Notes under the pieces: generated by a model
What the model was told of the DNA's origin: nothing
The model's input: the letters and a program-made list of their open reading frames with translations, nothing else
The model's database searches: none
Position numbers and translations under genes: made by a program
In this document: positions 3,081 through 24,656 of the stretch, one piece after another
How the letters are laid out: each line of letters starts with the position of its first letter
Position numbering within the stretch: the stretch's first letter is position 1
Assembly: GCA_963692945.1 (NCBI GenBank)
Contig: OY843585.1
Span: forward strand, 1,140,001 to 1,172,000
Direction of reading: 5' to 3'
DNA length: 32,000 bases
From: Bdellovibrionales bacterium
GTDB lineage: Bacteria; Bdellovibrionota; Bdellovibrionia; Bdellovibrionales; UBA1609

Positions 3081-3275
3081 TCACTTATGACTATTTTTTA
3101 GTTTTTTAATCTCTGCTTTAGACAAACCTGTCACTTCCGCAATCAAAGAGATATCAAGTTTTTTCTTTAACATATTCAAAATAACTTTTTGAAACTTTTG
3201 TTGTCCCTTATCTTGCCCTTTTTGAAACCCCTCTTCCAGAGCTCGTTCTCTTATAATCTTTCTCATATTTATCAT
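3081..3275 (-). CDS. Possible internally initiated small isoform of Rpn (RpnS-like, 64 aa)
   Basis: In-frame ATG at 3273-3275 is preceded, inside the Rpn coding sequence, by GAGGAGG (complement of 3281-3287). This is the same SD-ATG arrangement used by the two stand-alone tail genes. Confidence 0.45.
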   Translation of the reverse strand: MINMRKIIRERALEEGFQKGQDKGQQKFQKVILNMLKKKLDISLIAEVTGLSKAEIKKLKNSHK

Positions 3276-4124
3276 AGTTCCTCCTCTTTTTAAAAATCCC
3301 TCTTTTACCATCAAATCCTCAATCTTCTTCCAATTCTTTGCACTCAACCCCGTGTTCTGTTTCAGATACTCAGTAATTCCTAACAAAACATCCTCTTTTC
3401 GTTGACCTTCTATACTTTTAAACAACTCCTTAAAATCTAAAACAATCTCACGCAACTTAGAATCTGTTGGGTTCTTTAAACTCCATATTTCCCTCAATAA
3501 ACTCAACGCCCCTCGTCCCTTAAACCTTTTATCCTTACCAGCTCTTTGGACTCTTGGAGCATTCACATCTATTACTTTCAACTTGTAGTTTAACATGTTT
3601 TTTCTTGTTTCTAAAGGAATTTTAAAAAGAGAATCTCTAAAATTCTCTTCTAAAAAAGAAGATTTCCACTTCATATTTTGTCTCCCATGATAAAACAAAA
3701 CAGGAATTATAGGTTGTAAATAACCAAGATGGTCTTTATTGTGTCGGTGAATTAACACTTGATAATCTAAGAGTTGATGGAAGAGGTTTTTATCATAATA
3801 GGACTTATGTTCTAGAAGAATAAAGAGGGTGAGTTTCATTTTAGGGATTTTTTTAAAAGGAACGGAGAAAATAAGATCAGCTCTTTTATCTTCAAAACTA
3901 TCTTTTTCTATTTTTAGTTTTTTCCAATCATAAGCTTTCATTTCTTTTTTTGAAAAGATGAGTTCAAAGAGTTCTGTAGCTAAGTCAGGATTAGAATAGA
4001 AGAGTTTAAAAAACTTATCATGACTAAAAGCTGTGTTTTTCTTATGAATTCCTTTTTTAAATTCTAAGGTTTGATTTTTAAGATTTAAAGCTTGCTTAGT
4101 TTTTTTAGACATTGTTTTTCTCAA
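3081..4124 (-). CDS. Rpn family recombination-promoting nuclease / putative transposase (YhgA-like PD-(D/E)XK)
   Basis: 347 aa. Nuclease core pattern KRADLIFSV ... LTLFILLEHKSYYDKNLFHQLLDY (D ... E-x-K), typical of the Rpn/Transposase_31 family. The C-terminal tail is repeated in the two downstream genes. Confidence 0.8.
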   Translation of the reverse strand: MRKTMSKKTKQALNLKNQTLEFKKGIHKKNTAFSHDKFFKLFYSNPDLATELFELIFSKKEMKAYDWKKLKIEKDSFEDKRADLIFSVPFKKIPKMKLTLFILLEHKSYYDKNLFHQLLDYQVLIHRHNKDHLGYLQPIIPVLFYHGRQNMKWKSSFLEENFRDSLFKIPLETRKNMLNYKLKVIDVNAPRVQRAGKDKRFKGRGALSLLREIWSLKNPTDSKLREIVLDFKELFKSIEGQRKEDVLLGITEYLKQNTGLSAKNWKKIEDLMVKEGFLKRGGTMINMRKIIRERALEEGFQKGQDKGQQKFQKVILNMLKKKLDISLIAEVTGLSKAEIKKLKNSHK

Positions 4125-12833: not shown

Positions 12834-13664
12834 CTAAACAATTATTTCTTTTTCAAATAGATCAAAATTAGATTTATCAATTTTTTTAGGTGTTTGAGAA
12901 TGAGGAGGCTTGCCTTGTATCTGAATAAATGACGAAGAGTTTTTAAAATTACTTGGAAAAATAGCTAGACAATCTCTCCCAGTATAACAGGATCTATATA
13001 CTATACCTGAAATTCCTGAAGATCTAACCAGTTGACCAAAAATTTGTGAATTAGAGGGAAGATCAAAGTCTTTTGTGTGACGTATCCAGTTTTTATTCAT
13101 TATGGATTGATGAATTTCTTTTCTATTTTGAAGAATTCTTAGCTTCGGCTTTAATTTCAATTTCTTACTTTTTTCTTTTAGAGTTTTAGAAAATTTAAAT
13201 TTCTTTAATATTTTAGTAATCCTTGTTAGTTTTTTATAACCTCTTATATCAAATATAAAATCTAGTTTCCCACTAATAAAAATAGAAGAAAAAGAATCTT
13301 TTGTTGATAAAGATAAATCGTAAGTAGACATCTCATTAGAGTTTTTAGAAGATATTTTAGAAAGTAACCCTTCACTTTCAGCTGTTTCTTTGTCCTTTGC
13401 AATGTACAATGCTGAAAACTGAGGAATTAAATTAGGACTCATGTTTCCCATATTAAAACGCCCACCAGACTCTCTTATACTTCCAAGGGTACACAAGGGA
13501 TGATTGCTATAACGCCATTTAACAACTCTACACCAATCCTTAAAAATAAAATCATCCGTAGATTCTGAAAAAAGACTCTCTTTAATATCTTCTAAATGAG
13601 ATTCTCGTTGTTTTGCAAGTTCAAAGTATTCTTCCAAATAGTAGTCACGATGTTTTTCAAGCAT
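12834..13664 (-). CDS. RES-domain toxin (RES family NAD+ phosphorylase-like)
   Basis: R-E-S landmarks: ESGGRFNMGN, ALYIAKDKETAESE, GIVYRS. Located downstream of an Xre/ParS/MbcA-type antitoxin gene. Longer than typical RES proteins because of a Lys-rich insertion. Confidence 0.7.
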   Translation of the reverse strand: MLEKHRDYYLEEYFELAKQRESHLEDIKESLFSESTDDFIFKDWCRVVKWRYSNHPLCTLGSIRESGGRFNMGNMSPNLIPQFSALYIAKDKETAESEGLLSKISSKNSNEMSTYDLSLSTKDSFSSIFISGKLDFIFDIRGYKKLTRITKILKKFKFSKTLKEKSKKLKLKPKLRILQNRKEIHQSIMNKNWIRHTKDFDLPSNSQIFGQLVRSSGISGIVYRSCYTGRDCLAIFPSNFKNSSSFIQIQGKPPHSQTPKKIDKSNFDLFEKEIIV

Positions 13665-13728: not shown

Positions 13729-14133
13729 TTAATTGGATTTACTTTTTTTTAAGGGTTTGTTTTCAGAAAGAGCATTTCTAATAAATTTAATCAATGCTTT
13801 AGATCTACCAATACGAATCATATCTTTTGGTGTTCGTTCCCCTAAAAAAGGATTAGGAGTAAAAAACCAACGCATAGTTTTATCTTCATCTTCAAAAAAA
13901 TTAGCAACCAAGTTGATAGCTGTAGCCCATTCCCTCATTCGTTCTTTTAGTTCTTGAGGCATTTTTTCATCGTATCTAATAGAAGATAATTTCACTCCTG
14001 AAGATTGAGAAACTTCTTGTTTTTTTAATTCTAGTATTTTAACAACTGCTTCTCCTTTTACATTTTTCCCTTTAAATAAGGAAAGCCTATCTTTAGGGAG
14101 AGTGAATGCTTTATTTGATTGAAATTGAACCAT
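13729..14133 (-). CDS. Xre/MbcA/ParS-type antitoxin (DUF2384-like toxin-binding domain)
   Basis: C-terminal pattern MRWFFTPNPFLGERTPKDMIRIGRSKALIKFI, typical of RES-partner antitoxins. AAGGAGG SD upstream. Confidence 0.7.
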   Translation of the reverse strand: MVQFQSNKAFTLPKDRLSLFKGKNVKGEAVVKILELKKQEVSQSSGVKLSSIRYDEKMPQELKERMREWATAINLVANFFEDEDKTMRWFFTPNPFLGERTPKDMIRIGRSKALIKFIRNALSENKPLKKSKSN

Positions 14134-14423: not shown

Positions 14424-17400
14424 CTAATATATTTTAGTATTTAACCAATTCTGTATACATTGACATATTTCATCTTGATGAATTGGTAATAAGGCAGTTT
14501 TAGATTTTACTAATTGAATCAAACTATCAGCTATCTTTTTTGGATTTTCAGATCTTCCAAAGGATAATTGATTCAAAGTTTCTTTCACAATGACCTCCTG
14601 ACTAGAAAGTAAGATAGGAGAATTTTGAAATAGATCAATAAAAAAATCTGAAGTGACACAAATAATACTTTGTAAATTTGAAACAGGCCCTAAAAAGAAT
14701 AATCCTCTTTGAAAACCAAAATGGTTAACTCCATATTGTCCTTCTTTTAATAAAAACATAAGTATCTTATGATCTATTGGTATATAAGTTTGATTTAATT
14801 TTACTAATTCAGCTTTAAATTGGATAGACTTATTAACATCAATAATTTGTTGATTTTCAAAATATCTAACCATATCAAATAGTCTAACTCCTAAAGATTC
14901 AAAATCATTTTTAGCAAGTGTTCTAGAAACTTCATCCTCACATAAAAGAATTATGTTTTTTTCTTCTTTAACCACCAATAATGGATCACAAAATTCTTTT
15001 CCCAGAAGTTTCTCCATTTCATTTATTTTTTCTCTGCTTATTATCAATGAATCACTTATTGATTTAATTTGACAATGATCTTTAGCCCATTGTTTCACTT
15101 TTTTAAGGAAGTCTAAATTTTCTACTATTTTTTCTGGTGAAGTGAAAGATTTTTTTGGCTGCTCATTTTCTCCACCAGGAATAAGCATTAATAACCCATC
15201 TTTAGCATGTAATTTCCTACTTTGTATAAGGTTTTCTAAAGAATCTATTGTAGATTGACATATATAAAGATTAAATTTGTTATTACTTCTCTCTAGATAT
15301 TGTTCTAATTTTATTCCATGAAGTGTAATAAGAGATGATAAATCTATTATCAAGTCACTATAATTATTCAAAACTGTAAGAGAGTTATTGTAATCATCTC
15401 TTTCAGGTTGAGAGGATATGAATTTATCTTTCTTAGATCTAGTTAAATATTCAATTACTTCTATAGGATGTTGATTGATAATTTTCGATATAGCTCCAAT
15501 ACCTATTTCTCCTTTTTTATAATATTGAAATACTTGATTATTCCTTTTTTCTATTTGTGAACTATCTGCCATAAATTGTCTCATCGATTGTAATATATCT
15601 TTAGCTGTTGCATTTTTTGTAATAGAGATGGATTTCATAAAATTATTTGAAGGAAAATTTATATTCATATTGCTTGGAATATCCTGATATTTATAAATAT
15701 ATTTACTTTTTATATCTACGATTTTATACTTTTCGTTTCCAATATCAATTACATCTCCCTTCTTTTTTCCTAATAATTTTTTAGATAACTCATGCCCTGG
15801 AGTAAATATATCTGCTGACTCCTCAATAATAATTTCTCTTTCTGTTTGATTATTTATTTCTTTAATTTTTACATAATAATCTAAATCTACTTTATCACTT
15901 TGAAATAAAATAGAATTTTGCTCTTTAATTTGACCATAAACAGTAACCAATTCAAAATATAATCTTTGTGCTTCTAAGCTTGAAGGATGATTCTTGATAT
16001 TTTGATATTGAATTTTTAAAGCTTTTTTAAAATCCCGTATATGTATATAAGCTATTGAAAGATAGTTTATTTGCTTAACAGATAATTGTTCTAAATTAGT
16101 TATAGAATCTAAAAGTTTTTTAGCTTCTATAACTTTTTGTTCCCTTATATAAGCAAAGATTAATTGTAATTTTATTATGCTATTGTCAGGATTTAAATGA
16201 ATAAATTGTTTACAATAATTTATTGCTTTTTTTCTATTTCCTAAAGTTTCATGGACATGAAATAAAACATCAATAGGCTCTATTCTATTAGGAAATTTTT
16301 TGAATAATTGTTTTGCTAACTCTATAGCCTTTTCATTCTTCCCATTTTCAAAATAAACATGTAATAATTTAAATTTTTCAGGGTGATTCATATTGTTTTC
16401 TGTGATTTTTTCTAATAAAGATTCACACATCCTATACATCTTTGAAAAATACAACTCAAGCACAAGTTGTTGAATATCTCTGATATGAACATTATTTTTT
16501 TTAGACAAACTAATTGCTTCTTTAAGATAGTTATTTTTTTGCTCGATATTTTTTTTATGACTCTCAATTTTAGATTTTAAGATTAAAGTTAATATATTGC
16601 CTCTATCATCTTCAAAAAAAGCATCTAATATCTTTTCTGCTTCATTAAAATCTCCAAAATTGATTAATCTAAATATTAAATATCTTTTTGCTTCGATTCT
16701 ATTATCTTGACTTATAGATTCATCAATAATTATTTTTCTTAATAATTTTTTCCCTTTTTCTTTGTTATCTGTAAAAAAATACAAATCTGCTAATTTTAAA
16801 TTCATTTCAAATGTTTTTTCTTTAATTTTTTCTAATATAATAATACTTTCTTCAATTTTTCCTATTACTTCTAAAAATCTACATAACTCTATTTTTAAGT
16901 CTTTATTTTCAGGAAAAATATCAATTCCCTTATTGATAACTTGAATAGCCTTATCTATCTGTCCATTAATTTCAAGAGATATAGCATAATGTATATACCA
17001 ATATGGATGAAACTTTTTTAATTCATCAAAATCTCTATTTGTAGTTAACTTTTTATAAATATCTATAATTTTTTCTAATTCAGGAATTACACTATCTGGA
17101 GCACATCTTGATGTAAATACCTTATATTTCTCTAAAATGATTTGTAAAGACATTTCTGCATATTCAGATTCTACAATATGATCTTTATTTTTACACGAAA
17201 GTTTTAACCATTTTTCAGCTTGCTCATACTGTTTTTTTCTTATACTAATATGAGCTAATGCATGAATCATCCTATCATTTTCTTTCAAGTCTGCTGGAAT
17301 GCTATCAATAATTTCTTCTAAAGTTTTATCCTCTCTATCCTGAATTTGTACATTAATAATGTAAGCATTTATATTTAACGGATTTAATTCTTTAACTTTT

Positions 17401-18227
17401 TCTATATATTGTTTTGCTTTTTCTATATCATTTCTAATTAGATAACCCATAGCACAATTATAATTAGCATCTTCATCTTCTTTATTAAACTGTAATGCAC
17501 CTATCAATAATTTACATCCTTCCATATTTTCATTCATTTTTATTTTTGCACACCCCATATTAGTTATGACTCTATATTTTTCTTTATCATCTAATATATG
17601 CCATTCTTCTGCTTTAAGTTTTTCTAACTGCTTAAAGGCTGTTTGTGGTTTGTTATCTATTAAATCTTTTATTCTGTTAAGTTCAGAATGAGAACTATTA
17701 CTCTTAATTAAGTTTAGATCTAATTCACTATTCAAATTATATTGAACAGCATTATATTTAGATTTTTTTATGAATTTATCAATACCATAAAATTTTTGAT
17801 ATATTGTAGGATGTTTTTCAAATAAATCTTTTATTTCATCCCAACTATGAATTTCTACAGAAAAAAGATCTTGATTTCGATGTTTTTCAGAAATGATTCT
17901 TGCTTCTTTTTGTATATTTGCATCTCTTTTACAAGTTGTTGCTAAAATAAATTTTTTTAAACTAGGGTCAAAATTTTTTGCTTTTTCTACTTCTTTAAGT
18001 AACTCTTCTTTCTTAATTTTTGAGGTAACCTCTCTTTTTTTGCACTGTATTCCTATATCTTGATCTTGCACAAAAATATCCACACCATCTTGAGATTGAC
18101 CTTGTCTTCCATTTATTTGAGTTTGCTCTCCATACTCTGCTTTATATAACTCCAAACATATTTTTTCAAAAAGACCTCCATCACTAGGAGGAGGAATTTG
18201 TAAGTTAAACAAAAAAAAGCCCTTCAT
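14424..18227 (-). CDS. Large multidomain protein: N-terminal Mrr/restriction-endonuclease-like domain, long TPR-like helical repeat array, GreA/B C-terminal-like domain, C-terminal PIN-like domain
   Basis: aa 15-145: GGLFEKICLELY...GQSQDGVDIFV...IGIQCKKRE...FILATTCK (Mrr_cat-like D...QxK pattern). aa ~190-770: repeated helical-hairpin TPR-like units. aa ~778-842: VDLDYYVKIKE...FTPGHELSKKLLGKKKGDVIDIGNEKYKIVDI (GreA/B C-terminal pattern). aa ~955-1125: LIIDLSSLITL ... QSTIDSLE ... ILLCEDEVS (acidic residues spaced as in PIN folds). Confidence 0.75.
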   Translation of the reverse strand: MKGFFLFNLQIPPPSDGGLFEKICLELYKAEYGEQTQINGRQGQSQDGVDIFVQDQDIGIQCKKREVTSKIKKEELLKEVEKAKNFDPSLKKFILATTCKRDANIQKEARIISEKHRNQDLFSVEIHSWDEIKDLFEKHPTIYQKFYGIDKFIKKSKYNAVQYNLNSELDLNLIKSNSSHSELNRIKDLIDNKPQTAFKQLEKLKAEEWHILDDKEKYRVITNMGCAKIKMNENMEGCKLLIGALQFNKEDEDANYNCAMGYLIRNDIEKAKQYIEKVKELNPLNINAYIINVQIQDREDKTLEEIIDSIPADLKENDRMIHALAHISIRKKQYEQAEKWLKLSCKNKDHIVESEYAEMSLQIILEKYKVFTSRCAPDSVIPELEKIIDIYKKLTTNRDFDELKKFHPYWYIHYAISLEINGQIDKAIQVINKGIDIFPENKDLKIELCRFLEVIGKIEESIIILEKIKEKTFEMNLKLADLYFFTDNKEKGKKLLRKIIIDESISQDNRIEAKRYLIFRLINFGDFNEAEKILDAFFEDDRGNILTLILKSKIESHKKNIEQKNNYLKEAISLSKKNNVHIRDIQQLVLELYFSKMYRMCESLLEKITENNMNHPEKFKLLHVYFENGKNEKAIELAKQLFKKFPNRIEPIDVLFHVHETLGNRKKAINYCKQFIHLNPDNSIIKLQLIFAYIREQKVIEAKKLLDSITNLEQLSVKQINYLSIAYIHIRDFKKALKIQYQNIKNHPSSLEAQRLYFELVTVYGQIKEQNSILFQSDKVDLDYYVKIKEINNQTEREIIIEESADIFTPGHELSKKLLGKKKGDVIDIGNEKYKIVDIKSKYIYKYQDIPSNMNINFPSNNFMKSISITKNATAKDILQSMRQFMADSSQIEKRNNQVFQYYKKGEIGIGAISKIINQHPIEVIEYLTRSKKDKFISSQPERDDYNNSLTVLNNYSDLIIDLSSLITLHGIKLEQYLERSNNKFNLYICQSTIDSLENLIQSRKLHAKDGLLMLIPGGENEQPKKSFTSPEKIVENLDFLKKVKQWAKDHCQIKSISDSLIISREKINEMEKLLGKEFCDPLLVVKEEKNIILLCEDEVSRTLAKNDFESLGVRLFDMVRYFENQQIIDVNKSIQFKAELVKLNQTYIPIDHKILMFLLKEGQYGVNHFGFQRGLFFLGPVSNLQSIICVTSDFFIDLFQNSPILLSSQEVIVKETLNQLSFGRSENPKKIADSLIQLVKSKTALLPIHQDEICQCIQNWLNTKIY

Positions 18228-18265
18228 ACAATATCACCATTGTTCTTGCTAAGATTAATAGTCCT

Positions 18266-18433
18266 TTAATTTATTTCTTCATAATCTCTAATTATTCCAT
18301 GAAGATTGTTTACACCTACTCTAATCTCTTCTGTACTATTATCTATTTTTTCACAAAAATTCTTTGCAAATTTTTTAATATCTTTTATATGCTCTTCTAT
18401 TAAATCCCTAATCTCACTATAGTGAACACTCAT
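18266..18433 (-). CDS. Small acidic helical protein, 55 aa (hand-called, below the track cut-off)
   Basis: MSVHYSEIRDLIEEHIKDIKKFAKNFCEKIDNSTEEIRVGVNNLHGIIRDYEEIN. ATG preceded by aacaaaggagtaaagt (strong SD). It ends 38 nt upstream of the 1267-aa gene on the same strand. Confidence 0.55.
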   Translation of the reverse strand: MSVHYSEIRDLIEEHIKDIKKFAKNFCEKIDNSTEEIRVGVNNLHGIIRDYEEIN

Positions 18434-18483
18434 ACTTTACTCCTTTGTTAATAAAAATAAAAACTTTTGTTAAAGAAAGATAC

Positions 18484-18660
18484 TTTTAAGATCATAGGGT
18501 GGTAAGTTGATTGTTTTAAAAGATCTATTCTATTTAAAAAAAATTTAGTTTTTCTAAGTACTTATCATCCTACCGTTCAAAGTTTAAGCTTCATACTTTT
18601 TAATAGTCTCGTATCAATAAAAAAATCTGTTTAAGTTTCATCTGTTTTAAAACTATACTA
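18484..18660 (+). repeat. Intergenic repeat family, copy A
   Basis: ttttaagatcatagggtggtaagttgattgttttaaaagatctattctatttaaaaaaaatttagtttttctaagtacttatcatcctaccgttcaaagtttaagcttcatactttttaa aligns by eye along ~125 bp with 24768-24902 and with the reverse complement of 31114-31262. Confidence 0.65.
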
Positions 18661-18770
18661 TTTATGCAATAATTCTCTGTTTTTAGGTAAAAATCTCAGT
18701 ATAAATATAGTTTTAACTATACTTTATATGTAGAAATTACTCATTTTTAAGTAAAAACTACATATAAAAA
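18651..18770 (+). promoter_or_regulatory. Two ~56-bp direct repeats with a 64-bp period, upstream of abiEi (candidate operator/promoter)
   Basis: aactatactatttatgcaataattctctgtttttaggtaaaaatctcagtataaa (from 18651) versus aactatactttatatgtagaaattactcatttttaagtaaaaactacatataaa (from 18715). Each contains a near-palindrome tttttaRgtaaaaa. Confidence 0.4.
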
Positions 18771-18806
18771 TTGATTTTACAAGAGAATTACTGTATAAAT
18801 GAAGTT

Positions 18807-19700
18807 ATGAAAAAACAATTACTTACAACCAAACAAAAGCTTTCTGCTTTATTTGCTTCTGGTGATTTTATAAGAATCGACGATGCTAAAAATATACTAA
18901 GACTATCAAGGGTTCAAACTTCTAAAACTCTATCAAAATGGGCAAAACAAGGTTGGTTGAGGCGAATCGCTTCTGGTGTTTATATACCTGTTCCTCTTGG
19001 TATTGGTGATGATGAGCAAGTTCTAGATGATCCTTGGGTTGTAATACCTGAATTATTTCCAACTTATTATATTGGAGGTTTATCAGCAGCTTCTTATTGG
19101 GAACTCACAGAACAAATTTTTAAAAATACTTTTGTTTTTACAACAAAAGCTGTTAGGTCTAACACTACTCTTATACAAGATAATACATTTATTATAAAAA
19201 ATATTAACCAACGAAAAATATTTGGTACAGAACAAATATGGAGAGGAAGAAGAAAAATTTTTATATCAGATGTTTATAAAACTTTAATTGATATGTTAGA
19301 TGACCCTTCTGTTGGAGGAGGCATTCAGCATGTCTCTTATTGTTTTGATACTTTGATAAAATTAGATTTTAAAAAGAGGCAAGGACATAGATTGTTATCA
19401 CGAAAAAGAAGTGAACTAAAAAATGGAAGATCTCTGGAATATGATGATTTAAAAGAGTCTAGACAAAAAAAAGATTTTGAAAAATTAATCACTTACTCTA
19501 AGAGGATTAATAACGGCAGTGTTTTTAAAAGGCTTGGTTTTCTTGCAGATCAAAATCCTCAATCTAGAAATCTAGCTATGGAGTGTGAAAAATATTTAAC
19601 TAAAGGATATGCTAAACTAGATCCTTCTATAAAATGTGATAAGCTTATAACAAAATGGCGATTATGGATTCCAAGTTTCTGGTTTAAAAAGAATTTATGA
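18807..19700 (+). CDS. abiEi: AbiEi-family antitoxin / transcriptional regulator (type IV TA)
   Basis: N-terminal wHTH-like segment (ILRLSRVQTSKTLSKWAKQGWLRRIASGVYIPVP). Gene order and a 4-nt overlap with an AbiEii-type NTase gene. The track ORF starts at TTG 18771; I prefer ATG 18807 (MKKQLL...). Confidence 0.7.
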   Translation: MKKQLLTTKQKLSALFASGDFIRIDDAKNILRLSRVQTSKTLSKWAKQGWLRRIASGVYIPVPLGIGDDEQVLDDPWVVIPELFPTYYIGGLSAASYWELTEQIFKNTFVFTTKAVRSNTTLIQDNTFIIKNINQRKIFGTEQIWRGRRKIFISDVYKTLIDMLDDPSVGGGIQHVSYCFDTLIKLDFKKRQGHRLLSRKRSELKNGRSLEYDDLKESRQKKDFEKLITYSKRINNGSVFKRLGFLADQNPQSRNLAMECEKYLTKGYAKLDPSIKCDKLITKWRLWIPSFWFKKNL

Positions 19701-20875
19701 TTACAAAACAAGAAATAAGAAATAGAGCTTCTATAACATCATTATATCCTCATGTTATTGAAAAAAATTATGCTTTAGCTTGGTTACTAAATGGAATTTT
19801 TAATCATAAAGAGCTTAAAGATAAATGGATATTTAAAGGTGGAACTTGTATAAAGAAATGCTACTTTGAAACTTATCGTTTTTCGGAGGATTTAGATTTT
19901 ACTTTGAAAGATAATACTCATTTTGAAGTAAGTTTTCTAAAAAATACATTTAATGATATTTCACATTGGATTGAAAAAATATCAGGCCTCTCTTTTCCAT
20001 CTGAATCCCATACATTTGAGATTGTTACCAAACAAAACGGTCAGGTAAGTGTTGAAGGAAAAATTGCTTATTCAGGCCCAGTATCTCCTCAAATTGGATT
20101 GCCAAAAATAAAACTAGATCTTACAGCGGATGAACTAATTATTTTACCTCCTGTTCAAAAACAAGTCTCTCATCCATATTCAGATCGCCCAAAAGCTGGC
20201 ATTCAGATTATGTCTTATGCTTATGAAGAGATTTTTGCAGAAAAAATTAGAGCTCTTGCTCAAAGAGCAAATCCTCGTGATCTTTATGATGTGGTCAATC
20301 TCTATAGAAATCCAAATGCAACATCAGATATATCTTTATTAAAAGATATTCTTAGGCAGAAATGTGAATATAAAAATATTTCAATTCCAAAGCTAAAAGA
20401 TGTCATGAGTAATAAAGATAAAATAAATGCTTCATGGAAGGCTATGTTAAATCATCAGCTTTCTTATTTACCTCCCGTAGAGGGTTATTGGAAATCTCTA
20501 TCTAATTTCTTTCATTGGATAGGAGGTAATGTAAAAAATGAAAAAACATCTATTCAACTAAAACAAAATGAAATTTTAGTTACAGAACAAACCCTTAACC
20601 TTCCTTTAGAACAAATAAAAATAAAAACTTTTGTTGAGAAAATTCGTTTTGCTTCTACAAATCATCTTTGTGTAAAAATTAAATATGAAGATTCAGAGCA
20701 TCTCATTGAGGCTTATGCTTTAAGCAAAAAAGAAGGAGTGCATTTTATTTTATACACTTGGAATCTTACAAAAGAACAAATTTGCACTTACCTTATAACA
20801 CGAATAAAATCTTGTGAGATAACAGATCAATCTTTTAACCCTAGATATAAAATAGATATAATACCAAAGATTTAA
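19697..20875 (+). CDS. abiEii: AbiEii/AbiGii-family nucleotidyltransferase toxin with a C-terminal WYL-like extension
   Basis: FKGGTCIKKCYFETYRFSEDLDF and EEIFAEKIRALAQRANPRDLYD match the AbiEii (DUF1814) NTase pattern. The extra ~100 aa at the C-terminus (VKIKYEDSEHLIEAYAL..FILYTWN...TYLITRIKSCEIT) are discussed in findings. Confidence 0.75.
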   Translation: MITKQEIRNRASITSLYPHVIEKNYALAWLLNGIFNHKELKDKWIFKGGTCIKKCYFETYRFSEDLDFTLKDNTHFEVSFLKNTFNDISHWIEKISGLSFPSESHTFEIVTKQNGQVSVEGKIAYSGPVSPQIGLPKIKLDLTADELIILPPVQKQVSHPYSDRPKAGIQIMSYAYEEIFAEKIRALAQRANPRDLYDVVNLYRNPNATSDISLLKDILRQKCEYKNISIPKLKDVMSNKDKINASWKAMLNHQLSYLPPVEGYWKSLSNFFHWIGGNVKNEKTSIQLKQNEILVTEQTLNLPLEQIKIKTFVEKIRFASTNHLCVKIKYEDSEHLIEAYALSKKEGVHFILYTWNLTKEQICTYLITRIKSCEITDQSFNPRYKIDIIPKI

Positions 20876-20898: not shown

Positions 20899-22887
20899 TC
20901 ACTTCCATAACTCGCTTTCTGTTTTGTATTTACCACTATAAACAGCATGGTAAGCCGAGGGGATATCTATAGGCTTCACAGGTAAACCTTTAAACTTTCC
21001 GGTTTTAAAAACCTTGATTCCTTTTTTAGAAAGACTAACACTTTGTTTAGCATATTCATTCCAACCCTTTTGAGACCAACATCTCTTATCAAGTGACTTT
21101 TTTAAAAATCTTTTAAATTCAAAAAAGGATCTGTATTTTGCCTTTATCAAAGAGAGATTTCCTGTTCCTAAAAAACAACCAAAACCCTCAAAGTCTTTTC
21201 TATAAGTTTTATCAACAGCAACAGGAATGTCTATAGGCTTCACAGGTAAACCCTTAAACTTTCCTACAGGTAATCTCGGCAAACCCTTAAACCTACCACT
21301 CTTAAAAACCGACAAACCTCCCACAGCACCCTTAGAACCCAACACAGCACCCCTCAAGCCAGAAACACCCTTAACACCAGAAGCACCTCTCACAACACCC
21401 CTCAAACCAGAAACACCCTTAACTCCAAAAGAGCCAGAAGCACCCTTAACTCCAGAAACACCCCTCAAGCCAGAAGCACCCTTAACTCCAGAAGAACCAG
21501 AAGCACCCTTAACTCCAAAAGAGCCAGAAGCACCTCTCACAGCACCACTCAAACCAGAAGCCCCCTTAACTCCAGAAAAACCAAAAGAACCCAAAGAACC
21601 CCCCAAAGAACCAAAAGAACCAACAACAGCCCAAACTTCCAAAGAAACTCTACAATACTCTTTCCACTCCACTTGACCCTTAAGGTTTAAACTTTGAACA
21701 AATTTTTTAGCCTCAACATAAGATCTATAATTTCTTTTGCGAGTTGGAATATTTCCACTTCCTAAAAAATCCCCCCAACTAAAGTTTTCATTCCTAAAGT
21801 TTTTATAATGATGATAGACAGCCCTTGGTATATCAACGGGACGCAAAGGGAGTCCTTTAAACTTCCCTTTATCAATAACCAACCGACTTCCTTTAAACTT
21901 CCCTCTACCAGTAACCAACCGACTTCCTTTAAACTTCCCTTTATCAATAACCAACCGATTTCTTTTTCTTGCCAGATCTGAATCTCTACAATAATCCCTC
22001 CACTCAAACTGATTTTTTAAATGAAGGTTTTTTACAAACAAGCATGCCTTTTTATAACTTCTATAAGAAAGGGGTTCTCGCTTTGGTTGAACAAAAAGTA
22101 AAAAGAAACTCCAACCTCTCCACTGACTTTGATAAATCTTTTGAGGGTGGTCAGGAATGTTTGTAGGTTTAACTTTTAATCCTTTAAACTTCCCTTTTTT
22201 AAAAACCTTTAAACTCTCATATTTTTTAGAAACTTCACAATACTCTTTATAAGTCTTCTTCGAATCAATGAAAACATGATGTTCATTCAATCTTCTCACC
22301 CATTTGTAAGCTATAGAAAAAGAACAATATTTTTTTTGATAAGGAGCCAGATGCTTAGAGTCTAAAAAATCCCTGTAGCCCTTCCATTCCTTTTTATAAA
22401 CGGCGTAGGGATCAAATGGAACTTTTCCTGTTGGAAATTTTGGGAGCAAGACTTGCCCATGACAGATTTCACCTTTAGCCCAGAGTTCAAATTCTTTTTT
22501 ACTTCCAAGTTTTAGTTTTCTAACATAAGCCCTTGCTTTTTTATAAGACCAAAAACCTTTTGACCTTTGATGAGGTGAAAAATGATTTGTCCCTAAAAAA
22601 TCCCCCCAACCCTTCCACTCTTTTTTATAAACAGAGTGAACAGACGAGGGTATGTCTTTTGGCTTTTTATTAGATTTAGCCCAACAAATAAACTCCCCTC
22701 TATTCTTAAACTTTTTAGATTGAATATACTTTTTAGCTTCCAAAAAACTTTTGTAGCGTAAAGATACAACATCTAATTTCTTACTAGACTTAACTAAGAC
22801 AATAGATGCTTTTTTATTCTTAAACTTTTTAGCTTGAATGTATTTTCTAGATTCTGAAAAACTTTTATAACTTTTTTGGTAAGGCAT
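20899..22887 (-). CDS. Repeat protein built from integrase-repeat-like modules with a central Gly-X-Y (collagen-like) segment
   Basis: At least 5 modules of the type YRSY.EAKKFV..L.LK...EW.EYC....GKFKGLPVKP.DIP....VYK.EWKGWGDFLG. aa 421-526 are Gly-rich with long runs of G-X-Y triplets. Confidence 0.7.
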   Translation of the reverse strand: MPYQKSYKSFSESRKYIQAKKFKNKKASIVLVKSSKKLDVVSLRYKSFLEAKKYIQSKKFKNRGEFICWAKSNKKPKDIPSSVHSVYKKEWKGWGDFLGTNHFSPHQRSKGFWSYKKARAYVRKLKLGSKKEFELWAKGEICHGQVLLPKFPTGKVPFDPYAVYKKEWKGYRDFLDSKHLAPYQKKYCSFSIAYKWVRRLNEHHVFIDSKKTYKEYCEVSKKYESLKVFKKGKFKGLKVKPTNIPDHPQKIYQSQWRGWSFFLLFVQPKREPLSYRSYKKACLFVKNLHLKNQFEWRDYCRDSDLARKRNRLVIDKGKFKGSRLVTGRGKFKGSRLVIDKGKFKGLPLRPVDIPRAVYHHYKNFRNENFSWGDFLGSGNIPTRKRNYRSYVEAKKFVQSLNLKGQVEWKEYCRVSLEVWAVVGSFGSLGGSLGSFGFSGVKGASGLSGAVRGASGSFGVKGASGSSGVKGASGLRGVSGVKGASGSFGVKGVSGLRGVVRGASGVKGVSGLRGAVLGSKGAVGGLSVFKSGRFKGLPRLPVGKFKGLPVKPIDIPVAVDKTYRKDFEGFGCFLGTGNLSLIKAKYRSFFEFKRFLKKSLDKRCWSQKGWNEYAKQSVSLSKKGIKVFKTGKFKGLPVKPIDIPSAYHAVYSGKYKTESELWK

Positions 22888-23070: not shown

Positions 23071-23916
23071 TTAGTAAGCTCCACTAAAAGCCGAAGTATG
23101 ATCTGAGTCACATAAACCATAACCTACTGAAAAAAACCAACGCTTTGTAAAACCAACTTTATCACCTATTAGGAATCCTCTTTGATCAGCTGAGGCTCTC
23201 CAATGAGGTTGTCCAGTAGAATATTTAGGACTTTTTGTGTGTGTAATAGAAATACACACTACTCCTCTACCGATATCAGCTACTCCTGTGCATACGAGTC
23301 CATCTTTATATGACTGACCTGATGAAAAAGTCTTGCCAGAACTAACTGCGTGAAATATTGATGAGTAAGACTGCCTTGTTCTAACTCTATATAGACCATA
23401 ATTATCACATTTAAAACCTAACTTTTGAAAAGAGTTACAACCCCTTACCCCGTTTAATGCTAAACAATTCTGTATGGCTTTACTTGCGTTGATTGTAGAG
23501 ATTTTTATTACTCTTTTTACAGCGCTTTCTTGATATTTATTATACGCAGTTATCACAATAGAAGCTAATAGTCCTAAAATTCCAACTACGATTAAAACTT
23601 CTATAAAAGAAAATCCTTTTTTATTTTTACTTAGTTTTTTCTCCTCTGCTTTCAATTCTTTTATGGAGTAATCTTCATATTTTCTATAAGTTTCTTTGCT
23701 TAGCTCGCTACAGTTTCTAAGTCCTTTACCTGTTTCAATAGATTTATAATTCCTACATTTCATTTTTATACTATCTAAAGAACAAGTAAAACTTTCATCA
23801 TTCTTTTTTAAATTTTTACAAAGCTGGTCTCTATGAAGAACATTTTCTCTATAAATTATAAAGACTTTTAGCTCATGTAGATTTGTCCATTTCATTCTTG
23901 TTTTTCTTTTACTCAT
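23071..23916 (-). CDS. Pilin-like protein with a prepilin-type motif ~100 aa from the annotated N-terminus
   Basis: KKG|FSFIEVLIVVGILGLLASIVITAYNKYQESA at aa 99-130. No in-frame ATG lies close to the motif. An in-frame TTG at 23653-23655 would give a normal 14-aa leader (MKAEEKKLSKNKKG). Confidence 0.65.
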   Translation of the reverse strand: MSKRKTRMKWTNLHELKVFIIYRENVLHRDQLCKNLKKNDESFTCSLDSIKMKCRNYKSIETGKGLRNCSELSKETYRKYEDYSIKELKAEEKKLSKNKKGFSFIEVLIVVGILGLLASIVITAYNKYQESAVKRVIKISTINASKAIQNCLALNGVRGCNSFQKLGFKCDNYGLYRVRTRQSYSSIFHAVSSGKTFSSGQSYKDGLVCTGVADIGRGVVCISITHTKSPKYSTGQPHWRASADQRGFLIGDKVGFTKRWFFSVGYGLCDSDHTSAFSGAY

Positions 23917-23938
23917 TACCTAAGAAGTAAGGGCTTCC

Positions 23939-23964
23939 TTTTAAAGAAGCCCTTTAATTTATAA
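23939..23964 (-). terminator. Hairpin downstream of pilin gene 24012..24656 (candidate intrinsic terminator)
   Basis: aagggcttc (23939-23947) / gaagccctt (23956-23964), 9-bp perfect stem with an 8-nt loop, followed on the minus strand by acttctt. Confidence 0.5.
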
Positions 23965-24011
23965 AATTTCATTATTTACATACATAACACTAACTAATAG
24001 ATATGAACTTA

Positions 24012-24656
24012 TTAAGGACTACATACTCCACTACTACACTGAACAGTTGTTTTGGATGTTGTTCCTGTTCCACAATTAGTTGGTGAAGCCACGCTAGGAG
24101 CTGTTCCAGTGCAAACAGGTGGAGTGCAACCAGATGGGCATGAAGCAAGAACATGAGTTCTACAAGTAACTAGTGTTGAACTACCTCCAGCAGTGTAAGA
24201 AGAAGGAGCTAAGTCAATACAAGCTGCCCCACCAGGTGATCCAGTTCTTTGCACTGGTACATTACTTGTAGTATCTATAGACCAACAACCTTCATTTCCA
24301 TCACCATCATTTCCAACATATACTTCAAAACAAACATTATTAGCTGTTCCATTATCAACAGCAATTGTTGCTCCAGACTGAGATTTTACTCCTATCTCTG
24401 TTATAGAATTACACCCATCAAAACTACCTAAGACCCTACAAGTATTATAAGATTTCTCTATTAAATTTAAACTTGATGCTACCACTCCTCTCCTAGCACT
24501 ATCTTGATATTTTTGATACGCAGGAATAGCAACAGCAGCTAACACTCCAATTATGGCGACAACCACAAGCAATTCTATTAAGGAAAACCCTTTTTTCCTC
24601 TTTTCTTTTTTGTTCTTATTTAAAGGCTTGAACCAGCCTATTTTTTTAAAGTCCAT
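24012..24656 (-). CDS. Type IV pilin (candidate major pilin of the second cluster)
   Basis: Leader ...KEKRKKG|FSLIELLVVVAIIGVLAAVAIPAYQKYQDSA. AAGGAGG SD. Cys-rich C-terminal region. Hairpin terminator downstream. Confidence 0.85.
   Translation of the reverse strand: MDFKKIGWFKPLNKNKKEKRKKGFSLIELLVVVAIIGVLAAVAIPAYQKYQDSARRGVVASSLNLIEKSYNTCRVLGSFDGCNSITEIGVKSQSGATIAVDNGTANNVCFEVYVGNDGDGNEGCWSIDTTSNVPVQRTGSPGGAACIDLAPSSYTAGGSSTLVTCRTHVLASCPSGCTPPVCTGTAPSVASPTNCGTGTTSKTTVQCSSGVCSP

Follow-up and report, generated by a model that had tools for sequence, protein, structure and literature searches.

A 32,000-nucleotide (nt) stretch of contig OY843585.1 from a Bdellovibrionales bacterium (assembly GCA_963692945.1, positions 1,140,001 to 1,172,000 of the forward strand; hereafter the window) carries on its minus strand a gene for a protein of 1267 amino acids (aa). 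This protein is almost certainly a TPR-GreAB-C-PIN (TGP) protein with a restriction endonuclease (REase) head (Table 1), and it quite probably works in phage defence. The best explanation of the evidence, to which we assign a rough probability of 0.6, is that the gene encodes a single-chain TGP anti-phage protein of the subtype with an Mrr/Avs4-type PD-(D/E)xK DNase head. The architecture, nuclease head included, has already been published, and the window protein is a well-supported further example of it and not a new system.

The open reading frame (ORF) is intact, and that 3.8 kb should have stayed free of stop codons at a GC content of about 25% speaks for selection on it. One database protein, P0001, encoded on a contig of 1.56 Mb, is identical to its product. 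A first-pass annotation of the window had placed this ORF, together with a 55-aa ORF lying 38 nt upstream of it, at the correct coordinates, and its label for the large protein, a two-nuclease single-chain sensor/effector, is in our judgement a fair description. The four domain calls underlying that label are upheld on Pfam, AlphaFold2 (AF2) and Foldseek, sequence-profile and conservation evidence. A Pfam scan of the whole protein by itself missed both Mrr_cat and GreA_GreB, which surfaced in scans of segments or across the family. All figures for residue conservation given below derive from an alignment of 56 homologues, some lineages of which are only 20-28% identical.

The N-terminal head had been read as an Mrr_cat-like restriction endonuclease, and this reading was sustained at the levels of sequence and of predicted fold. 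The Pfam family Mrr_cat (PF04471) matched aa 8-160 at 21.3 bits, against a cutoff of 21, which is a borderline score (aa 1-175 gave 20.9 bits), and it also matched 20 of 27 heads from the family, with a best E-value of 2.5e-7. An AF2 model of aa 8-160, for which 27 homologues served as input, reached a predicted local distance difference test (pLDDT) value of 89.9 and showed the core order alpha-beta-beta-beta-alpha-beta, as in PD-(D/E)xK nucleases, with helices at residues 10-25 and 66-77 and strands at 29-31, 44-46, 51-56 and 85-90. When this model was compared with known structures by Foldseek, the best match was the nuclease head of Avs4 (8dgf; probability 1.0, TMq 0.63), followed by EcoT38I, Can2 and XPF/FANCM; a sequence profile of the head searched against PDB sequences likewise ranked Avs4 first, over aa 18-99. 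The predicted catalytic residues E21, D50, Q61 and K63 (Q61-C-K63 in this protein) are retained in 52-54 of the 56 homologues. P0057, a 1519-aa STAND protein with a NACHT domain (PF05729), has this head too (40% identity across 147 aa), and the head has therefore been exchanged between TGP and Avs-like sensors. To judge from these sequence relationships, the nuclease head is a shuffled effector module.

For the C-terminal part of the protein, a profile of the last 500 aa yielded noise only against PDB sequences, and folds had to be compared instead. PF01272 (GreA_GreB) matched aa 776-846 with an E-value of 0.006 and was found in 22 of 31 family segments (best E-value 2.9e-7). In an AF2 model of aa 768-1267 (pLDDT 87.3), the beta-rich start and E. 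coli GreA (1grj) could be superposed with an rmsd of 1.5 A across 72 columns (Foldseek probability 1.0); this start also superposed on Gfh1 (2f23), on the complex of RNA polymerase (RNAP) with Gfh1 (3aoh) and on a Nitrosomonas GreA/B. The family profile aligned to GreA residues 99-155, such that the SPIARGLIGK...D motif of GreA corresponds to H812-ELSKKLLGKKKGD825 here. Both the superposition on 1grj and the PF01272 matches across the family thus bear out what had been called a GreA/GreB C-terminal segment. The N-terminal antiparallel coiled coil of GreA and GreB was not found in the protein, the alignments spanning some 72-78 columns of these 150-residue factors.

Between this domain and the PIN domain lies a four-helix module in which Y903 is invariant and G911 almost so. 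Pfam gave weak hints only for this module, i.e., UPF0175 and WhiA, the latter a helix-turn-helix (HTH) family; it may be an HTH, an element absent by name from the published description of the family. The PIN domain itself was recognized by PF20698 ("PIN domain associated with the TPR-GreAB-C-PIN system"), which matched aa 960-1106 at 57.3 bits, against a cutoff of 27.8, and the central alpha/beta part of the AF2 model matched the PIN structures 1o4w, 1y82 and SMG6 PIN (2hww) in Foldseek. The acidic residues D962, D1081 and D1098 are retained in 51-54 of the 56 homologues, and S992/T993 in at least 51. The spacing of acidic residues that had prompted a PIN-like assignment in the first-pass annotation does, on these three lines of evidence, mark a PIN domain. 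Beyond the PF20698 boundary, the all-helical C-terminal domain contains the conserved residues L1141, L1156, F1195, R1225, P1248 and W1261; a structural search with aa 1116-1267 returned no informative match.

The long helical repeat array that separates the head from these domains consists of TPRs. Five Pfam families scored over their cutoffs, namely TPR_19 (80.6 bits), TPR_14 (63 bits), TPR_2, TPR_8 and TPR_1, the best stretches falling within aa 254-714, and weaker TPR-type matches extended the array to about aa 200-768. The 1267-aa protein contains no Walker A motif, and scans of Pfam, NCBIfam and PADLOC found no NTPase family in it. An array without an NTPase had been described for this protein before, correctly on both counts.

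The TGP family was defined by Kaur, Iyer, Burroughs and Aravind (eLife 2021; PMC8195603) as a constant, fast-evolving core made up of TPRs, a GreA/B-C domain and a form of PIN domain that had not been detected before, on which 13 alternative N-terminal effectors are found, including REase, HNH, SIR2, TIR, PNPase, peptidases and EAD10; an earlier paper by Kaur et al. (2020; PMC7159879) does not describe the system. The window protein has about 50 full-length homologues at 40-50% identity. The few of these with a named source come from metagenome-assembled genomes of Bdellovibrionales whose chromosomes measure 1.4-2.3 Mb; in some cases two copies share a contig (P0002 with P0005, P0029 with P0035). 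A profile built from aa 768-1267, the constant region, retrieved 3,440 clusters at 50% identity with E-values up to 1e-3, and 1,395 at E-values up to 1e-30. Among the best 150 matches to this profile, 145 were not already in the homologue set and 103 of those were at least 1000 aa long; a profile of the head detected the same nuclease head on 64 of these 103 proteins. Alternative heads on constant-region relatives were SIR2_2, PNP_UDP_1 and an alpha/beta-hydrolase, and TGP proteins lacking the REase head were at most 26% identical to the window protein. By these sequence comparisons, REase-TGP is the dominant form around the clade of the window protein. The idea that the fusion to an Mrr-like head is new must accordingly be given up, because the REase is already listed for the TGP core (PMC8195603) and because the head is so frequent among these relatives.

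The genomic surroundings of the homologues show no synteny. Genes for methyltransferases, ResIII, KAP NTPase, GmrSD, AAA_13, an integrase and transposases lie near the TGP gene at five loci (L003, L004, L007, L008, L012), and at two others (L005 and L006) the cassette is flanked by unrelated housekeeping genes. Consistently housekeeping contexts would have spoken against a defence function; the contexts observed are variable and rich in defence and mobile genes, those two loci apart. A search of a phage collection found no match to the protein, and a plasmid collection yielded one distant match, annotated "tetratricopeptide repeat protein". A single-protein scan of genome contigs gave one true relative; a further candidate from that scan, L002, was rejected as a spurious TPR match. 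The protein might in principle be a housekeeping factor, associated with RNAP and acting in RNA surveillance or transcription termination, given that a GreA/B-C fold combined with a PIN RNase could serve transcript quality control and given the housekeeping flanks at L005 and L006. We regard this as highly improbable: the homologues are non-syntenic and occur as several paralogues per genome, toxic domains (SIR2, PNPase, REase) are exchanged at their head position, and the neighbours include restriction-modification, Abi, transposase and integrase genes in DNA of atypical GC content.

In one respect the close relatives differ from the window copy. In seven of the eight unfused loci from Bdellovibrionales relatives, the REase-TGP gene has a gene for an AAA_14-DUF4143 ATPase as its immediate upstream neighbour on the same strand, and the ATPase is fused in frame before the nuclease head in a further seven proteins (P0003, P0017, P0026, P0034, P0035, P0036 and P0044). 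This ATPase matches the PADLOC candidate PDC-S01 with an E-value of about 1e-41. No remnant of it was detected by tblastn at 18228-18770 of the window. The ATPase is likewise missing beside P0002 (locus L003), which at 50% identity is the closest relative, and upstream of the distant REase-TGP protein P0052. Coupling of a TGP protein to an ATPase lies outside the published description, according to which TGP systems are mostly standalone and have few conserved neighbours (PMC8195603); the window copy and P0002 stand alone, and the ATPase accompanies the TGP gene at the seven loci and in the seven fused proteins. It is possible, though we would put it well below even odds, that in this small-genome Bdellovibrionales lineage an NTPase gates the system and REase-TGP normally supplies its effector and sensor half; the window copy would then be an ATPase-less derivative with the 55-aa ORF in the place of the regulator. 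Where the ATPase is fused, the result is a protein of about 1700 aa with the order ATPase-nuclease-TPR-GreAB-C-PIN.

A rival explanation, i.e., that ATPase and REase-TGP form the functional unit and that the window copy, having lost its ATPase, is inactive or decaying, is quite improbable. It draws on the adjoining or fused ATPase of the relatives and on the lack of any trace of one in the window, but decay is hard to reconcile with a reading frame that, at about 25% GC, runs uninterrupted over 1267 codons and in which all catalytic and invariant residues are preserved. Nor is the window copy alone in this state, as P0002 and the distant P0052 show, and Kaur et al. (2021) found the family to be mostly standalone.

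How a TGP protein might act was proposed by Kaur et al. (2021): the GreA/B-C domain engages the beta-prime coiled coil of RNAP and the PIN domain cleaves the extruded transcript, with the N-terminal effector kept in reserve as a suicide module (PMC8195603). For the window protein we propose a specific mechanism along these lines, tentatively and at less than an even chance of being right. Its GreA/B-C domain, to judge by fold and by the conserved motif L-x-x-x-L-G-K-x-x-G-D, would dock the protein at the secondary channel of RNAP, on the beta-prime coiled coil, in the manner of GreA, GreB and Gfh1, and the TPR array of about 560 aa would sense that a phage has taken over transcription, or would sense a phage protein. 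The PIN domain, with its acidic site intact, would then cut transcripts. Release or activation of the nuclease head, whose E-D-QxK site is also intact, would probably come about through oligomerisation, as in Avs4, and the head would cut DNA, the outcome being phage restriction or abortive infection.

Experimental work on the family bears on parts of this scheme. In E. coli ECOR25, the TGP protein Agp together with the small Bell-domain protein Bab mediates abortive infection against T5, the two proteins signalling through a common amyloid motif (bioRxiv 10.1101/2024.11.07.622273). Because defence by Agp has been shown, the family is no longer uncharacterised, and the earlier statement that no experimental characterisation exists is out of date. 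Two substitutions in the GreA/B-C domain of Agp (S628L and L634P) and one in its PIN domain (D762N) abolish defence, the D762N protein being unstable, and no activity of Agp was found without Bab (10.1101/2024.11.07.622273). As the GreA/B-C substitutions were copied from GreA alleles defective in RNAP binding (10.1101/2024.11.07.622273), the mutants lend indirect support, by analogy, to docking of the window protein on RNAP.

Several points weigh against a single-chain anti-phage protein of this kind. No REase-headed TGP protein is known to be active, and no TGP protein is known to bind RNAP. None of the PADLOC v2 models identified the large protein as a defence gene, its sole match there being a weak TPR hit (PDC-M71B). 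The window copy might be incomplete, because seven of the eight unfused close relatives have the upstream ATPase. Finally, the PIN domain may be structural or regulatory and not an RNase, because no activity of Agp was found without its partner and its PIN mutant was unstable.

This last point leads to the main rival explanation, in which the TGP core is a sensor and oligomerisation platform only, the PIN domain is non-catalytic or autoregulatory and the DNase head is the sole killer. Such a division of labour would fit the lack of Bab-independent Agp activity and the lowered protein level of Agp D762N; it would also fit a head that is a swappable part of the TGP family and that most resembles the nuclease of Avs4, a sensor protein with no other effector. 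We nevertheless consider it unlikely, in that D962, D1081, D1098 and S/T992-993 of the PIN domain are kept in at least 51 of the 56 homologues across lineages only 20-28% identical, which is the pattern of an active site.

The 55-aa ORF upstream of the large gene had been put forward as its small partner, in part on account of its ribosome-binding site. The contrast in Shine-Dalgarno strength noted at that time is real, the large gene being preceded by GGTGAT only, vs AAAGGAG for the 55-aa ORF, and because AAGGAG is so rare in the window (20 occurrences over both strands of the 32 kb), a perfect Shine-Dalgarno sequence at this ORF is unlikely to have arisen by chance. The length of the ORF is by itself not significant, because 6.9% of shuffles of the 543-nt upstream region yielded an ATG-initiated ORF of at least 55 codons. 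Among 5.8 billion proteins the 55-aa ORF has no homologue, forming a singleton cluster found on the source contig alone, and tblastn against seven relatives' loci (including L001, L003 and L004) and the rest of the window gave no match to it. It shares no common motif with the first 80 aa of the large protein, the alignment score being 19 vs a shuffle mean of 23. Searches for a Pfam, PADLOC or NCBIfam match at E < 0.001, for a hydrophobic helix and for a Bab-like amyloid-type segment in this ORF were all negative.

The only promoter-like hexamers before the large gene are those upstream of the 55-aa ORF; the promoter and terminator scan was uninformative overall, with fewer matches than in shuffles. 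As a separate observation, the region has a single terminator-like hairpin, CCTCCTAGTGATGGAGG followed by a T-run, at 18175-18191 (minus strand). It falls within codons 1-20 of the large gene, specifying PPPSDGG there, and is probably coincidental.

On this evidence the chances that the 55-aa ORF is translated are about even. A two-gene system, in which the acidic protein would serve the large one as a dedicated inhibitor, antitoxin or adaptor, like Bab for Agp, would account for the shared strand, the 38-nt gap, the AAAGGAG 6 nt before the ATG next to a weak Shine-Dalgarno sequence for the large gene, and the restriction of promoter-like hexamers to the region upstream of the small ORF, and Bab/Agp provides a precedent for a small partner. 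Despite this, a functional partnership is improbable. The ORF has neither homologues nor tblastn matches in the relatives' loci checked, an ORF of its length arises in 6.9% of shuffles, its motif score lies below the shuffle mean, and the hydrophobic helix and amyloid-type segment of Bab are missing; at the corresponding position the relatives have the AAA_14-DUF4143 ATPase gene or nothing conserved. The earlier partner claim thus lacks comparative support, and the 55-aa ORF amounts, at most, to a leader or small gene specific to the lineage; it is no conserved component of the system.

Two toxin-antitoxin pairs, RES/Xre and AbiE, flank the gene, which is part of a defence islet of low GC content. 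Pfam and PADLOC both bear out this placement, which had been made in the first-pass annotation, and the RES/Xre pair also matched NCBIfam NF049845 (E-value 2.3e-8). GC content is 0.22-0.30 over 12-20 kb of the window, vs 0.30-0.37 upstream. About 10 kb from the large gene, the AAA_13 protein matches the PADLOC candidate PDC-S06, and an AAA_13 gene is also found near the TGP gene in L004. No tRNA gene or other integration landmark was found in the window.

Some further features of the surroundings may be recorded. AbiEi_4-type antitoxins occur within a few kb of REase-TGP in three independent loci, namely the window (18771-19700), L007 (10779-11414) and L012 (2319-2981), a recurrence that may be mere defence-island clustering. 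A 662-aa protein encoded at 20899-22887 (minus strand) carries a collagen-like tract of Gly-X-Ser/Val and repeats of a "KFKGLP.KP.DIP" unit (Pfam INT_rpt), and its gene forms a local GC peak of 0.40 with a GC skew of -0.49. A YhgA-like transposase (PF04754) is located at 3081-4124 (minus strand), and type IV pilin-like proteins with the N_methyl motif are encoded on either side of the low-GC islet, at 984-1945 and at 23071-24656 (minus strand).

Table 1. Coordinates of the features discussed. Positions refer to the window unless a relative's locus is named.
Feature	Position	Strand	Details
REase-TPR-GreAB-C-PIN (TGP) gene	14424-18227	minus	intact ORF, 1267 aa
Mrr/Avs4-type PD-(D/E)xK nuclease head	17793-18206	minus	aa 8-145; predicted catalytic E21, D50, Q61-x-K63
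TPR array, presumed sensor or scaffold	15948-17630	minus	about aa 200-760; Pfam TPR families over cutoff, partial NCBIfam TPR-protein matches
GreA/GreB C-terminal (FKBP-like) domain	15690-15902	minus	aa 776-846; motif H812-E-L-S-K-K-L-L-G-K-K-K-G-D825
Four-helix module between GreAB-C and PIN	15438-15605	minus	aa 875-930; AF2 model helices 108-163
TGP-type PIN domain	14892-15392	minus	aa 946-1112; D962, S992/T993, D1081, D1098
All-helical C-terminal domain	14427-14882	minus	aa 1116-1267; AF2 helices 349-499, pLDDT > 90
Acidic orphan ORF	18266-18433	minus	55 aa, net charge -4; ends 38 nt before the large gene
Shine-Dalgarno sequence AAAGGAG	18440-18446	minus	6 nt before the ATG of the 55-aa ORF
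RES toxin	12834-13664	minus	Pfam RES 28.4 bits, cutoff 23.2
Xre/ParS-type antitoxin	13729-14133	minus	Xre_MbcA_ParS_C 30.3 bits, cutoff 24.5
AbiEi	18771-19700	plus	divergent from the large gene; PADLOC E 2e-100
AbiEii	19697-20875	plus	divergent from the large gene; PADLOC E 3e-161; Pfam AbiEii 132.9 bits
AAA_13 protein, 714 aa	28969-31113	plus	PADLOC candidate PDC-S06, E 3e-237; LmuB, PrrC weaker
Upstream AAA_14-DUF4143 ATPase	L001 4613-5767
Upstream AAA_14-DUF4143 ATPase	L004 4553-5872
Upstream AAA_14-DUF4143 ATPase	L005 4790-5971
Upstream AAA_14-DUF4143 ATPase	L006 4747-5997
Upstream AAA_14-DUF4143 ATPase	L007 3596-4936
Upstream AAA_14-DUF4143 ATPase	L008 3658-4986
Upstream AAA_14-DUF4143 ATPase	L012 3460-4776

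The value of the window protein lies in its being a clean and intact example of a subtype that is dominant in its clade, within a family thought to guard RNAP from phage takeover. A REase-headed TGP protein of this kind would make a good experimental subject, as its two nuclease sites and its docking motif are easily mutated and it requires no partner protein, and the relatives with and without the ATPase provide a natural comparison.

Set against known systems, the protein combines parts that are individually familiar. With GreA, GreB and Gfh1 it shares the C-terminal fold and an aligned h-x-x-L-h-G-K-x-x-G-D motif, but those factors also extend the acidic tip of a coiled coil to the active site of RNAP, whereas the window protein has the docking domain only. 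Avs4 (PDB 8DGF, "Avs4 bound to phage PhiV-1 portal") resembles it in carrying a nuclease head on a long repeat-containing sensor; Avs4 is, however, a STAND ATPase that senses the phage portal, while the window protein has no NTPase and instead has GreA/B-C and PIN domains. PDC-S01, matched by the ATPase of the relatives, is not present in the window, and its PADLOC definition does not include coupling to TGP.

Agp has the same TPR-GreA/B-C-PIN core as the window protein and, like it, an adjoining small gene. The two systems differ at their N-termini and in their small genes: that of Agp is a BASS11 amyloid motif signalling to the Bell-domain membrane protein Bab, whereas that of the window protein leads straight into the nuclease fold with no BASS11 motif, and the 55-aa ORF in the window does not encode a Bell-domain partner with a hydrophobic N-terminal helix. 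The closest correspondence is with the TGP systems of Kaur et al. (2021). The window protein has the same core order of TPR, GreA/B-C and PIN, with the variable head position filled by the REase, and nothing essential differs, except that its clade usually has the ATPase paired or fused whereas the window copy stands without it.

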